A DNA stretch of 64,000 nucleotides from Reclinomonas americana ATCC 50394 (GCA_048213135.1 PS015085.1:27456-91455); one strand, 5' to 3'; shown: positions 4,089 to 62,793, counted from the stretch's first letter. The notes: generated from the letters alone by a model not told the origin. Numbers and translations: made by a program.

Positions 4089-5398
4089 ATGGCGCGAGTG
4101 TTGCACAGACGACTCTTGCTCCTGTTTGGTGAGACAGAGCAATAGGCACAGAGAAAGCGCGTCTCACACTCATTCTGCCACACACACACACACAGACATT
4201 GACGGCACTCTCTGCAACGCACACGGGTGCGCTCTTGCACACAACTCACTTCCCTCTCTCTCTCTCTCTAGTCACTCACGCACATTCTTTGCACACACAC
4301 AAAAAGCCTCTCATCCTCAGCATTCTTCCGCTCACTGCGCAACGCGTTCGGCACCGACGATGTCTACAATGCGCGTGGAAAGATCGAGTTTGGAGGACGG
4401 TGAGAGAGAAAGACACACACACATACACACACTCTCTCACTCTTACACACACATTCTCTGTCTTTCAGCACTGATCTCGGCTTGGCGCGCGACATTGCAA
4501 TGCTCGCCGGCTTCGACGTTGCGGCGGAGCACACGCAGGACCGCATTGCGCGGGCATTGCATGCAGTCGCCGACGACTTACTTCACGAGACACGCACGCG
4601 TGCGGATGTGTCGGTGACACAGTGTCCGGGCGTGCTTGATTTGCTGGCGGCGTTGCGCGACGATGAGCGATATGTGGTATGCATGATTGCGAAGTTCGCG
4701 TCCACCTTACACAAGAGTGCTGAGTTTGTGCGTTGTGTGGTAGTGTGCGCTGTTGACTGGAAGTTGCGTGTAGCCGAGTCTCTTTGTACGAGTTTCGTGC
4801 TGTGTTGTTGATTGAGGTGGGGCAGATGGACCGCGGAGTGCGTTGTTGAAGCTGGAGCTGGCCGGCATTCCGACCTCACACTTTCTGTTTGGAGCCTATG
4901 GGCATGAGGTGCGTGTCTCCATCTTTCACTCCATCGCTCCCGCTTCTTAACCTCTTGTCACAGTTTGCCAATCGTAACGACCTGCCACCGGCGGCGCTCC
5001 GTCGTCTGGAGGAGCACTTTGGCGAGGAGGCGCGTGAGCATCCGGAGCATGCGTGCGTCATTATCGGCGACACACCGCGAGATATCGAGTGCGCCAAAGT
5101 CAATGGTTTGGGGTGATGCGTGATGCTTGTCGTTTCTGAATTTCGCCTTCATTGAGCTCGTGGCTGTAGGAATGCGTTGCGTGGCCGTGGCCACTGGCCA
5201 CGTATCGTCTGAGGCACTAGCGCAAGCGCCTCATGCAGCCGATCACATCCTTGGTAAGGAAGAGAGGGCTCAGCGTGCGTCGTGCGGGTCTTCTCACGCA
5301 CACATTCGCGCTGTTGTTGTTGTGCAGATGACCTGACCGACACACAGCGTGTGCTCGGCGTCCTCGAGAGTCTGTGGAGAGAGTCGTGGCCGGAATGA
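4089..5398 (+). CDS. HAD-superfamily phosphatase (phosphoglycolate phosphatase-like), 9 exons
   Basis: Spliced product MARVLHRRLLLLF-DIDGTL (motif I) ... CALLTGN (motif II, on a 19-nt micro-exon 4744-4762) ... IIGDTPRDIECAK (motif IV) ... VAVATG; stop TGA at 5396-5398. Confidence 0.88.
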
Positions 5399-5414
5399 AC
5401 CCTCCTCGCATCCA

Positions 5415-59287: not shown

Positions 59288-60145
59288 TGTGATTGAGCTG
59301 TAAATGGTCGTCTACACAAGCGATACGTGCAGAAATGTGCTGCATTGTGTGAGGTGTGTGTGAGTGCTTTAGTGAAGAGTGGCGAGTGTGGAGGAGGAGA
59401 ACTTGGGTGCATGCCGATGGCCAACACGAGGAGGCACATTTGTGATTGAGCTGTAAACGAAGCATTTACACAACGACAGTTTCGCGGGTTGGGCTCTAAC
59501 AAGCTCGGCGGACACCATAAAGCCACTTCATTGATGCGCACAGAATGAAGCACGAAAGCGCTGCGCTACAGATACCCATTGACGAGCTGGCTCTACAGTA
59601 GATATCGAGGAAACAAGAATTCATTCACCAACAGCTGTCTTGATGACCCAAGTTCAACCATATCCAAAACATCAACACAGACACCAATCTTGAGGCAGCA
59701 GCGGGTTCCTTGTGTGTGTGTGTGTGTTCGCTCTCGGAGCTCCGAACAAGTCGAGAACTGCGATCTTCACCGCATAAGCGTGCTTGCCTGNNNNNNNNNN
59801 NNNNNNNNNNACCGCAAACAGCGCGGTTGAACAGTTGCATACATTGGACGCCAGCGTGTATGGTTGCTGTAACACACTGACAGTTGCAAGGTACAGAACA
59901 CAAGCTCGGAGAACCGCAAAAAGATCGAATTATTGTGAATTATTTGACTTTTTTTTCGCTTATTGTCATCATGTCTCCTTCTCTGGTGATCACCATCATG
60001 CGGCTGTGTGTTGCAGCTAGCATCAGCATAGTTGCTGCTGTTGTTGCCTCCACCGAATAGAGGCACTTCGGTTGTGTCGACAGTCGACATCGACCTCGAC
60101 ATCGACCTTTGCATTTCCCTTTTTTTGCTTCTTTGCTTGCGAGAG

Positions 60146-62793
60146 ATGACTGCAGTTGCCCCGTGGGTTTCTCGTCACACCACCAATGCCTCCATTATTC
60201 AACTCTCACGCCAGCCGGATTACATTGGGAGTGGTGGAGAGAAGGGCAATGCGCCTCCGATCACGCTGAAGGCGTATCAGTTGTCGGGTGTGAACTGGTT
60301 GCTGGAGCGCGTGCAGAGTGGCGTCAATTGTGTGTTGGGTGAGTGTGCATTGTGCATTGTGTGCATTTTGTGCATGCATTGATCAATGTCGGAGAAAGGA
60401 GAGCATCACATGTTGTCTCTTCTTCTTGTTCTCCTCCTTGCTCTTCTCCTTCTCCCTCTTGCTCGTCTTTCTTGTTACAGCTCTTCTTCTTCCACCTCTC
60501 TCTTCCTCTTCCGCCGCCGTGCTCTTTTCCTTGCGTGTCTTCGTCTTGTTCTTGTTCTTGTCTTGTCCCTCTCTTTGCTGCTTCTTCTTGTTGACATCAT
60601 TCTCTTCCTCCTTCTCCTCATCCTCTTCTCCTTCTCTGTTCGTCTTGATGCTGTTCTGCATTGACATCAACTTGTCTTCCTCTTCCTCATTGGTCCTTGT
60701 TGTCTCATCCCTCCTCCCCCTCGCTGCTCTTCGTCGTCCTCGCCTTCCTCTTCTCCTCCTCACTCCTCTTCAATAGCTCTTGTTCTTCTTCTTCTTCCTC
60801 TGCTCCCGTTGCCTCCTTTTCTCTCTCTTCGTTGATGCTTGCCTCTTTCTCCCTTGTCTGTTTGCTTCTGCCTGCAAAGTCTCTTCCTTCCTTTCTCTCT
60901 CTTTTGCTCGTTCACTCTCGTTGTCTCTCTTTTCTGGCACATCCTTTTGCGTTGCGCCTGTCTGAGAGAGGAAGAGACGGGTGAGGAAAACGAGAAGAGA
61001 CTGGAGAACATGAGTCTCAGAAGACACTTCTTGTCCTTCTCATTCGTCCATTCCATTTTCTTGTCCTCTCTTGTTCATTCCTTCTCCTCTTCCAATCTCA
61101 CTCTTTTCTCTCTCTGCTCTCCCTCTCCCCCCTTCCGTCCCCCTCCCTCTCCCGTTCCCTCCTTCCCCCCCTTTTCAGGCGACGAAATGGGCCTCGGAAA
61201 AACCATCCAAACCATCACCTTCCTCGCCGCCCTCTACCGCGAATGCAACATCCGCCCACCCTTCCTCATCATCATGCCGCTCTCCCTGCTGCGCAACTGG
61301 CGCGACGAATTCTCGCGCACGCTCAGCCCCGGCATCCTGCGCGTGGTGACCTACGCGGGCGAGCGCAAGGACCGCGAAGCCGTGGAGCAAGAGGTGCTGC
61401 GGTGCGTGCTGCAGCAACCGAAAGAGAAGAGGCGGGATCCGGATCTGCCGTTTGACGTGCTGCTGACGACGTACGATTATTGCTTGCTGGAGGTCGATTT
61501 TCTCAGTCGGTTTATGTGGAGGATGGTGGTGGTGGATGAGGTGGGCGGGGTGGCGAAGGGGGAGGAATGGGGAAAGAGGGGGAGAGAGAGAGACGTCATT
61601 CTTTCTCTCGTTGTTTGTCTCTCGTGTTGCCGAATGTGCCCTCTCGTTCCAATATGATTGTGTCGCTGTTCCTCTCGCCTGTCTTCATTCATTCTCTATC
61701 CTCGCGGTATAGCTGCTCTCTTCGTCCCCATTGGGTACACACTCGTTGCGCCTTCTGTCTCACACGCCATCAATCCTTGCCCGTCACTGCCCGTGTTGAT
61801 TTTACCACTAGGCTGCTCACCGCAGACGCAATTTCAATCACTCGTCTCCTCCTATACTCCTTCTTTCTCACACTCATCATCAGTCCTTGCCCGTCACTGC
61901 CAGTGCTGGCCCTCCCCCACTGTGCTGCTCGCTGCAGACTCAATTGCTCTGTTCTCTTTTCTGCACACCCCCCGAGCTTCTTCAGCTCTTGCCCTTGATG
62001 CTGCTCTCCTGTTTTCTCGCACACATACACAGTCGACTTCCAGCAGTGAGGCTCTTTCTCTCGTTTTCTTTCTCTCTCTCTCTCGTCTCCCTTCGCTGAT
62101 CCAACTCTTTTACCTTCCACAGGCACATCGACTTAAAAACCACAAGAGTCAGCTCTTCAAGAAGCTGACGGAGGAGTACGAGATGCCACGGCGCGTGCTT
62201 CTCACCGGCACGCCGCTGCAGAACAACATTGGCGGTGCGTCATGTTGTTCAGTTTCTAGTTGGTGCGCTGCCTGACTTGTCTTTTCAGAGCTGTGGTCAA
62301 TCCTGCATTTCTTGGATCACAACAAGTTGCGTGACCTTCATGCACGTTCCTCCTTAGTTATCTCTCATTTGTTGCCGCTGCACACTTCCCCATTGCTTCA
62401 TTCCTCATGTGCCCTCCTCCATTCTCGCTCTACTTTCTTTACTTCTCACTCGTTGGTATTGCGCTTCTCCGCTGTCGACATTACACTCTTCTTCCTCTGT
62501 GTCCGTGGTGTATTCTTTCTTGCATTCCTCCTCCTCTGTCGGTGATAGTTTTCTGTGCACTCCTCATGTCTTGCTATCGTTGCTGTAGTCTTGTGGTGTC
62601 AGTGCATTCTTCTTCTTTTGTCATGTGCTTCCACTCGTGTCGCTGCTGCACTCCTCCAATGTCGCCTATGGGCATACCAGTTTCTCATATCCTTTTGTGC
62701 AGGTTCTACGATGTGCGAGACTTCTCTCGAAGATATCGGCAAGCCGACGAGGGCACCGGTGGCGAGGGAGCACAGGAGCTGCATGAAGTGCTG
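60146..62793 (+). CDS. CHD1L: SNF2-family chromatin remodeller, CHD1L/ALC1 (plant CHR10)-like; continues beyond the window
   Basis: LKAYQLSGVNWL, GVNCVLG|DEMGLGKTIQ, LPFDVLLTTYD, VVVDE|AHRLKN, PRRVLLTGTPLQNN, ELWSILHFL. The short N-terminus without chromodomains fits the ALC1 subfamily; the macro domain is not visible. Confidence 0.75.

Follow-up and report, generated by a model that had tools for sequence, protein, structure and literature searches.

An apparently abundant second class of GT-AG donors, GTTGCG, with the ordinary 5' splice-site motif displaced by one base, in an intron-dense 64-kb stretch of eukaryotic DNA

The 5' splice sites (5'ss) of introns were examined in a 64-kb stretch of Reclinomonas americana ATCC 50394 (GCA_048213135.1 PS015085.1:27456-91455; hereafter the window, meaning the whole stretch analysed), which is DNA of an intron-dense eukaryote. 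A reading made from the sequence alone had proposed that, beside ordinary donors of the form G|GTG(A/C)G(T), a major class of introns begins with GTTGCG or GTTGAG, the same motif displaced by one base. This second donor class was confirmed and occurs well beyond chance; its share of the donors is estimated at ~25% (range 15–35%). With moderate confidence, we read GTTGCG(Y) and, rarely, GTTGAGT as a genuine and abundant second class of GT-AG donors that would be handled by a single spliceosome through shifted U1 and U6 small nuclear RNA (snRNA) helices, with a U1 that carries G at position 5 (G5 U1).

Enrichment of GTTGCG at the ends of coding segments

Coding segments (N = 118) were defined by self-trained codon log-odds only, with no splice motif used, and all 4096 hexamers were counted from –15 to +18 nucleotides (nt) around the segment 3' ends. 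The most enriched hexamers included GTGCGT (14 copies, 2.84 expected) and GTGAGT (12 copies, 2.49 expected). GTTGCG was found 13 times against an expectation of 2.81 (P = 8e-6), on par with either of these two main ordinary hexamers, and TTGCGT (11 copies, 1.98 expected) and GGTGCG (11 copies) were also enriched. Segment starts were instead enriched in TGCAGG and TTGCAG.

GT sites that lie near a segment end with an open frame numbered 337 of 7592 (4.4%). This near-end share was 15 of 119 (12.6%) for GTTGMG (M, A or C) and 39 of 573 for GTGMG. When GTT sites were considered separately, 13 of the 80 near segment ends read GTTGCG, compared with 75 of the 1397 elsewhere (Fisher P = 6e-4). As to insertion versus substitution, a plain exchange of G for T at +3 should give GTTCG or GTTAG; these were present at 5 and 1 of the same 80 near-end sites, versus the 13 GTTGCG. 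The core TG[AC]G[TC] was enriched in near-end GT sites at intron offset +2 (31, 12.3 expected) and at +3 (14, 3.4 expected), and not at +4 (4, 3.4 expected).

GTTGCG was also the commonest donor hexamer in a parse that used no donor model (7 of 94 introns, 1.1 expected, P = 1.5e-4). This donor-blind parse recovered only one of seven homologue-fixed donors and is therefore crude, giving no census; crude parses yielded 92–101 introns in the window, compared with the roughly 85 placed by hand in the sequence-only reading. A dynamic-programming gene finder, whether or not it was given learned tables for acceptors, branch sites and donors, recovered from 1/7 to 5/10 of the fixed donors, and with strong acceptor scores it over-predicted (200–292 introns). 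Two statistics comparing coding potential before and after sites were dropped, being confounded by stop codons in the motifs or by GA repeats.

Shifted junctions fixed by homologues and profiles

All 23 sites listed by the sequence-only reading (20 listed first, the others as further candidates) carry the proposed hexamer on the proposed strand, 21 as GTTGCG and 2 as GTTGAG. Two of the 20 first-listed sites (15001 – and 44241 –) follow an exon that ends in G, and they are the only two among all 23. In the window as a whole, 88 copies of GTTGCG are spread over the two strands, ~11 of them in a tandem repeat at 51.8–52.5 kb; thus presence of the hexamer alone is no proof of a donor. Individual sites were sorted by their support. 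At 5 of the 23 (57481, 62326, 44241, 42194 and 41781) the junction is colinear with homologues or profiles and is fixed by them. At 4 of the 23 (37521, 37194, 38533 and, more weakly, 4763) splicing restores a known motif. In a third tier (6 of 23: 6479, 6277, 58819, 53494, 15001 and 25885), coding sequence stands on both sides of a 55–113-nt intron with a branch-like motif and CAG. An in-frame GT...AG model was obtained for 13 of the 23 sites, and the acceptor was fixed in none of the other 10. The five fixed junctions, together with the kinase catalytic-loop motif restored at 37521, support the view that these are real GT-AG donors.

Genes were recognised by Pfam, PDB or homologues unless marked here as seen by eye. 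Junctions were placed with an aligner that tried all AG acceptors for each GT or GC donor, used no donor matrix and rated the spliced peptide by its fit to homologues. In a DHX33/Dhr2-like helicase gene, the shifted intron c|GTTGAGTGT (56933..57481, –; 549 nt, phase 1) joins GKTT^QIPQ when aligned to P0001, with a score of 232 versus 188 for the next option; it ends in the acceptor TTTCAG with CTCAC upstream. As ordinary comparators in the same gene, spliced alignment gave g|GTGCGTGGT (56513..56695, –; 183 nt) and g|GTATCTCTC. In an SNF2-family gene, the shifted intron a|GTTGCGTGA (62326..62702, +; 377 nt, phase 2) had a mean local score of 52.2 over nine SNF2 homologues; the ordinary junctions there are g|GTGCGTCAT (62235..62288, +; 54 nt), g|GTGAGTGTG (60339..61178, +; 840 nt) and a third, g|GTGGGCGGG, placed by the nine homologues.

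The remaining three fixed junctions are in an NAA35/Mak10-like gene. Mak10 profile positions 20 and 21 fall on either side of g|GTTGCGCAC (44183..44241, –; 59 nt, phase 0): the first closes the exon that ends at 44242, and the second opens the next exon. Similarly, the exon with its end at 42195 matches TPR_NAA35 up to position 35, and beyond intron t|GTTGCGTGA (42082..42194, –; 113 nt, phase 0) the match resumes at position 36 with the first residue past the acceptor. The third intron, a|GTTGCGCGC (41725..41781, –; 57 nt, phase 0), is in frame and has CTCAC 15 nt before CAG, with profile positions continuous within ~3.

The HRDLKPxN loop is regarded as invariant, and an intron of a MAPK-like kinase gene, tt|GTTGCGTCA (37521..38030, +; 510 nt, phase 2), interrupts it. 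The exon before this intron ends ...VLHRD+tt at Pkinase profile position 124, and 38030 is the sole in-frame acceptor that yields L-KPANILI after the 37521 donor. This junction (HRD-L-KPAN) and GKTT^QIPQ at 57481 uphold the earlier claim that cleavage falls before the GT and not one base later. A GC or GA donor three bases downstream is excluded at both sites: the motif at 57481 is GTTGAG, so that a GC donor is impossible there, and at 37521 a GC donor would place an extra residue within HRDLKP. At 62326 the GC donor 3 nt later scores lower (46.0).

Sequence features of shifted and ordinary donors

On the intron side, the shifted donors are the ordinary consensus displaced by one base, as had been proposed: position profiles match from +3 to +8. 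Thus shifted +7 (T 78%, C 22%) resembles ordinary +6 (T 73%, C 23%), and shifted +8 (G 57%) resembles ordinary +7 (G 59%). A pyrimidine at +7 was found in all 23 listed sites, compared with 11 of 16 GTTGMG copies inside coding segments (P = 0.008). The core prefers C over A in the shifted class (21:2), versus 11:11 in ordinary donors with G at –1 (P = 0.003).

The exon side behaves otherwise. G at –1 was present in 1 of 15 shifted and 22 of 39 ordinary donors in the noisy near-end set (P = 0.0015), and among fixed junctions in 1 of 5 shifted and all 5 homologue-fixed ordinary donors. The sequence-only reading had held that shifted donors mostly serve exons whose last base is not G, which was not borne out as worded: G at –1 is found at 2 of the 23 listed sites versus 18 of 96 other copies of the motif (P = 0.36). 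The shifted class has no exon-side signal; its –1 position is background-like and not G-avoiding.

By eye, the 3' halves of introns are alike in both classes, with a CTCAC/CTGAC-like motif, a pyrimidine tract and CAG. A CTCAC/CTGAC/CTTAC/CTCAT-like motif was seen in 15 of the 17 introns printed and was weak or unclear in two (60339 and 4763). Intron lengths of 54–70 nt are common in both classes, and short introns of ~54–70 nt seem to form a size class of their own. In minimal introns of 54–57 nt (62235–62288 +, 38533–38587 + and 41725–41781 –), CTGAC, CTTAC or CTCAC lies 12–20 nt before CAG. When positions +8 to +207 of all 23 introns were compared with one another by blastn, no non-self hit was obtained; the introns share no such similarity beyond the motif and are therefore not a repeat family or introners.

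The sequence-only reading had also held the class to be large, and by excess counts it is estimated at about a quarter of donors. Donors with the core are in excess by ~10.6 for the shifted and 18.7 for the ordinary class, and 3 of 6 fixed ordinary donors (five homologue-fixed plus the motif-fixed one at 37020) are without the core; taken together, these figures lead to that estimate. Of the seven homologue-fixed donors in the helicase and SNF2 genes, which were mapped independently of the list, two are shifted.

Pairing with U1 and the proposed mechanism

Nearest-neighbour duplex energies were calculated with the standard U1 5' end (ACUUACCUG; the sequence is as printed in a passage of PMC4856993) as reference and with G at position 5 as the alternative. 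With the standard U1, the energies were –10.3 kcal/mol for G|GUGAGU, –5.9 for G|GUGCGU, –5.1 for A|GUUGAGU, whose duplex is in the shifted register and sets +1 G against C9, and –0.9 for A|GUUGCGU. For this last, dominant form the shifted register is not more stable with the standard U1, and +1 G is left unpaired in the model; +1 G was paired with C9 in only 2 of the 23 listed sites. Mean energies were –1.85 kcal/mol for the 23 listed sites, –2.77 for random GT sites and –8.6 for ordinary near-end donors. Because pairing is weak and GUUGAG is the favoured form, the standard U1 explains neither recognition of the shifted sites nor their 21:2 preference for C.

With G5 U1, the energies became –11.8 kcal/mol for GUGCGU, –7.1 for GUGAGU, –6.6 for GUUGCGU and –1.9 for GUUGAGU. 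Usage of these four donors is ~14:12:13:2. This order matches the energies with G5 U1 and not those with the standard U1, and a G5 U1 is therefore predicted. With this hypothetical U1, the shifted register with +1 G paired to C9 is found for the model GUUGCGU (–6.6 kcal/mol) and for 9 of the 23 listed sites.

In the mechanism that we favour, the same major spliceosome would read both donor classes by way of the core UG(C/A)GU(G), which starts at +2 in ordinary G|GUG(C/A)GU donors and at +3 in the shifted class. The helices between snRNA and 5'ss, U1 first and then U6, would be set one base deeper in the intron; either +1 G would face U1 C9, or the extra U at +2/+3 would bulge out. GU itself, and not the U1 register, would fix the cut, and the last exon base would then carry no signal. 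Judging from the energies only, the U1 5' end would read ...ACG.ACC..., like that of Mastigamoeba; U6 would need to accommodate the same extra base.

Several observations weigh against this account. Chance alone is expected to supply ~5 of the 15 near-end GTTGMG sites and ~25 of the 39 near-end GTGMG sites. Fixing at residue level was reached at only 5 of the 23 sites, and 8 of the 23 (9437, 10579, 13027, 19259, 50539, 53154, 23063 and 27464), often with an assembly gap next to them, fall in no support tier. At 37169 (+), an exonic GTTGCG (GTTGCGG, encoding LLRH, with G at +7) is evidently not used as a donor, and the hexamer alone is thus insufficient. The share was estimated from a single window of 64 kb, with segment ends that are noisy. 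The advantage of G5 U1 is modest, with a mean of –5.4 kcal/mol for listed sites versus –4.0 for random GT sites, and 10 of the 23 predicted G5 duplexes leave out +1 G. Exon positions do not follow the shift: shifted –1 (T 39%, A 30%, C 22%, G 9%) differs from ordinary –2 (C 45%, A 27%, G 23%, T 5%), with 39% versus 5% T (P = 0.01); since the exon side does not shift, a bulge or the lack of exon contact fits better than a strict shift. C at +4 also need not mean a changed U1, since passages of Roy and Bowser (bioRxiv 10.1101/2022.06.08.495308) describe +4 C donors together with a standard U1 in Thecamonas and Mamiellales.

A bolder version, that the organism may read its intron starts in two co-equal ways, with about a quarter of them displacing the U1/U6 core through either a G5 U1 or a second U1 complementary to GUUGCGU, is one that we consider less likely than not. 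The second of these options, taken by itself, is that of a separately recognised intron population with a U1 or U1-like variant fully complementary to GUUGCGU, instead of one U1 that tolerates a second register. We consider it unlikely, since a single G5 U1 already reproduces the usage pattern and the 3' signals are alike in both classes. What speaks for it is that the hexamer is tighter than a mere shift predicts (the C:A ratio of 21:2 versus 11:11, and the invariable pyrimidine at +7), that the standard U1 gives these sites no pairing advantage over random GT sites, and that co-evolved U1 5' ends in Entamoeba and Mastigamoeba are on record in passages of the same bioRxiv paper.

Less probable again is a minor role of U1 at shifted sites, which would be defined later by the U6 ACAGAGA box and U5 loop 1 or by proteins, the extra U being looped out in the catalytic core. 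The predicted U1 duplexes of listed sites are weak with every U1 tried, there is a strong signal on the intron side and none on the exon side, and a passage of a recent review (PMC11732430) argues for classes of 5'ss that differ in how well they can pair with U5 loop 1 or with the U6 ACAGA box. Against this, pairing with U6 would likewise need a shift by one base.

That many of the junctions are misplaced is very unlikely; in that case the true donor would be an ordinary GT close by, or a GC that follows three bases later (GTT|GCGT...), and GTTGCG would be common near exon ends for some other cause. GTTGCG at 37029 (+) shows how such an error can arise, being 9 nt within the intron of another donor, and the eight sites in no support tier and the 16 GTTGMG copies inside coding segments point the same way. 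Yet no GC donor is possible at 57481, where GKTT^Q is exact; HRDLKP would gain a residue at 37521; the GC option at 62326 scores 46.0 versus 52.2; and profile positions are contiguous at 44241 and 42194.

Slightly less probable still is a transformed class like that of the minor (U12-type) spliceosome with a new 5' motif. U12-type introns have the 5'ss RTATCCTT, a branch site close to the 3' splice site and no pyrimidine tract; their 5' motif is constrained and shows no preference for G at –1, and in these last two respects the shifted class is like them. It differs in its donors (GTTGCG/GTTGAG, unlike RTATCCTT), in having pyrimidine tracts and in sharing its CTCAC-like branch motif with ordinary introns.

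The least probable explanation, in which sequencing or assembly has overcalled the extra T, or in which the enrichment is due to chance or is a by-product of codon usage, could appeal to the gapped draft assembly and to the invisibility of an extra intronic base to the reading frame, but an overcall in G|GTGCG would retain the –1 G that shifted sites lack, the motif-blind enrichment has P ~ 1e-5, and a 1-to-2 homopolymer error at more than 20 sites of the same context seems implausible.

Comparison with known splice-site systems

Animal and yeast splicing is taught as a choice of 5'ss by U1 pairing in one register, with shifted and bulged registers seen as rare exceptions. Shifted-register 5' splice sites in humans were reportedly described by Roca and Krainer in 2009. 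According to passages of Tan et al. (2016; PMC4856993), both the shifted register and a +3 (or +2) bulge register are established for human 5'ss, and an estimated 1.5% use validated noncanonical registers. The human shifted register has the same layout as the sites described here, with U at +3 followed by the consensus displaced by one base, a cut at GU and +1 G proposed to lie opposite U1 C9. It differs in being rare, compared with about a quarter of donors here, and in that the dominant GUUGCGU is nearly unpaired with the standard U1 (–0.9 kcal/mol). Bulge registers, as described in PMC4856993, likewise place one extra 5'ss nucleotide between GU and the paired core. Again the abundance differs, 1.5% in humans versus a frequency here equal to that of either main ordinary hexamer, and the –1 G that would remain available to a bulge register is not favoured here. 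From the known human registers, the class departs in its abundance, in a C-rich core unable to pair with a standard U1 and in the lack of an exon-side signal.

Passages of Roy and Bowser (bioRxiv 10.1101/2022.06.08.495308) give AACAAAC as the U1 5' end of Entamoeba and ACGUAC, together with GUGCGC donors, for Mastigamoeba. Mastigamoeba is a precedent for pairing of U1 G5 with +4 C, the change that makes GUUGCGU usable; each of these two organisms has a single transformed consensus, whereas two registers would stand side by side here. Two major classes of 5'ss, //GURAG-type and AG//GU-type, are distinguished in a passage of Parker, Fica and Simpson (2025; PMC11732430). Both there and here, information on the exon side is traded against information on the intron side within one genome; those classes share one register, and here the core is displaced by one base. 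A paper on diplonemid splice sites gives (G)/GTATG, unlike the shifted motif. A literature search by motif and by concept found no report of GTTGCG-type donors, and a lineage-specific description may exist.

If the favoured reading is right, a displaced register as common as the main hexamers would be a natural experiment on what fixes cleavage, be it GU, U6 with U5, or the U1 register. It would also bear on how far the catalytic core tolerates one more nucleotide at +2/+3, and it would inform the co-evolution of snRNAs and splice signals. If, in addition, the two-register version holds, cut site and snRNA register would be uncoupled genome-wide, beyond rare exceptions. Trained on only one donor matrix, gene finders would get about a quarter of this lineage's introns wrong.

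Further shifted donors and candidates

Two more introns of the MAPK-like kinase gene have motif-level support only. Splicing out t|GTTGCGCGC (37194..37249, +; 56 nt, phase 0), which contains CTGAC and GCAG, joins ...LSHPN to LVRLRDAF...DVYFVFD...TDLH; splicing out c|GTTGCGTTG (38533..38587, +; 55 nt, phase 1) joins ...DMWSIGCVFAEM...EPVQGP (Pkinase 175–201) to LTQLRCIFEVIGTP. GTTGCG at 37029 (+), which was flagged by a screen and had not been listed, was rejected as a donor, since it falls 9 nt into an intron that starts at the donor AG|GTGCTTATC (37020). Kinase exon 3, a short query in a weak search against PDB, matched a MAPK at E = 1.5 only.

A tentative shifted intron, a|GTTGCGTGT (4763..4825, +; 63 nt), is in a HAD-hydrolase-like gene, where splicing yields CALLTG-N-GPRSALLKLELAGI; its pyrimidine tract is weak, and Pfam confirms a later HAD exon only. 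Upstream of it, 4744–4762 (+) is a tentative micro-exon of 19 nt (CALLTG + a) between two introns of ~63–67 nt, and the donor before this micro-exon is ambiguous (GTATGC or GTGGTA).

Two shifted introns are placed in an SNM1/Apollo-like gene (5448–6917, –; PDB match). The exon upstream of t|GTTGCGTGT (6410..6479, –; 70 nt) matches Apollo residues 85–148. This intron has coding segments on both sides and GCTCACC with CAG, and a|GTTGCGCGC (6213..6277, –; 65 nt) similarly has coding segments on both sides and ACTCACT with TAG. Exons 2 and 3, short queries, gave nothing relevant against PDB, and the two junctions thus gained no homologue support. By eye, a second SNM1-like open frame (9149–11690, +) lies ~2 kb away on the opposite strand, with no Pfam hit.

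The candidate intron c|GTTGCGTGT (53430..53494, –; 65 nt) is past the last conserved helicase exon: the exon before it matches P0001 up to ...FFVSTGTVD, and the tail downstream is not conserved. Another candidate, t|GTTGAGTCT (58758..58819, –; 62 nt), has open frames on both sides and CTCAC with CAG, without homologue support. Two listed GTTGCG sites have ambiguous acceptors: 14995..15001 (–), with coding support on both sides and an intron of 59 or 113 nt, and the candidate 25879..25885 (–), in a large repeat-protein gene, with an intron of 58 or 109 nt.

For the listed sites in no support tier, the surroundings were as follows. At 9437..9443 (+) the upstream frame is open and SNM1-like by eye, with no Pfam hit; no acceptor was fixed and gaps follow. 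The site at 19259..19265 (+) is close to the end of a coding segment and closes an exon that matches WD40 up to its last part, and the downstream exon was not fixed. The site at 53154..53160 (+) is at position 48 of 69 of an HMG-box match whose remainder was not found. A gap N run lies just upstream of 13021..13027 (–), where no acceptor was fixed, as at 10579..10585 (+), 50539..50545 (+) and 23057..23063 (–). The further candidate at 27458..27464 (–) is near a coding-segment end, with a gap inside the intron.

A screen of coding-segment ends gave further candidates at 2219 (+), 16470 (–), 22532 (–), 26658 (–), 26964 (–) and 49372 (+). The first of them, ta|GTTGAGTAT (2219..2225, +), is at the end of a kinesin motor exon that matches Kinesin profile positions 38–80 to its last residue; reading through leads to an immediate TAG, and the next exon is in an N gap.

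Genes and repeats of the window

The window comes from a gapped draft assembly, with 19 N runs and ~53% G+C. Besides the genes described above, WD40 proteins, a kinesin, a HAD-like hydrolase and an HMG-box gene were recognised, together with the SNM1/Apollo-like, MAPK-like kinase, NAA35/Mak10, DHX33/Dhr2-like helicase and SNF2-family ATPase genes. A gene for a large HEAT-repeat protein is also present, with a Rap-GAP/tuberin-like appearance noted by eye only. In the ESM Atlas, the look-alikes of a 222-residue exon are HEAT-repeat structures. Pfam often gave no match with short exons. An Rfam scan of the 64 kb returned a tRNA gene only (815–887, +; 57.8 bits), and U1, U6 or other snRNA genes were not found there.

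The top database match of a 328-residue helicase reading frame had 45% identity. The middle of the helicase gene (54080–56184, –) leaves P0001 residues 258–534 without a match; N runs lie at 54670–54815 and 55864–56184 within it, and exons are thus probably missing from the assembly. A metagenome scan with a helicase exon returned only loci at ~35–68% identity, uninformative for splicing here, and one with an NAA35 exon found no relative. Word-based homologue searches with an NAA35 exon and with a kinase exon gave no match.

A very large, repeat-rich gene with many short introns, probably for a surface protein, occupies 20571–33051 (–). Its product has weak, sub-threshold PMP-repeat and ephrin-receptor-like matches, and the GTTGCG/GTTGAG donor candidates at 22532, 26658 and 26964 are also inside this gene. 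A tandem repeat at 51727–52622 has an open frame on the + strand with units like LVAPLLLHNLRN...; most units carry GTTGCG on the – strand, at spacings of ~48 and 96 nt, and these copies are, as far as can be told, unrelated to splicing. The repeats (GA)n, (CA)n and (GACA)n are plentiful across the window. A long (GACA)n/(CAGA)n-type microsatellite (37555–37990, +) fills most of the 510-nt kinase intron, and other long introns are likewise filled by GA and CA runs.

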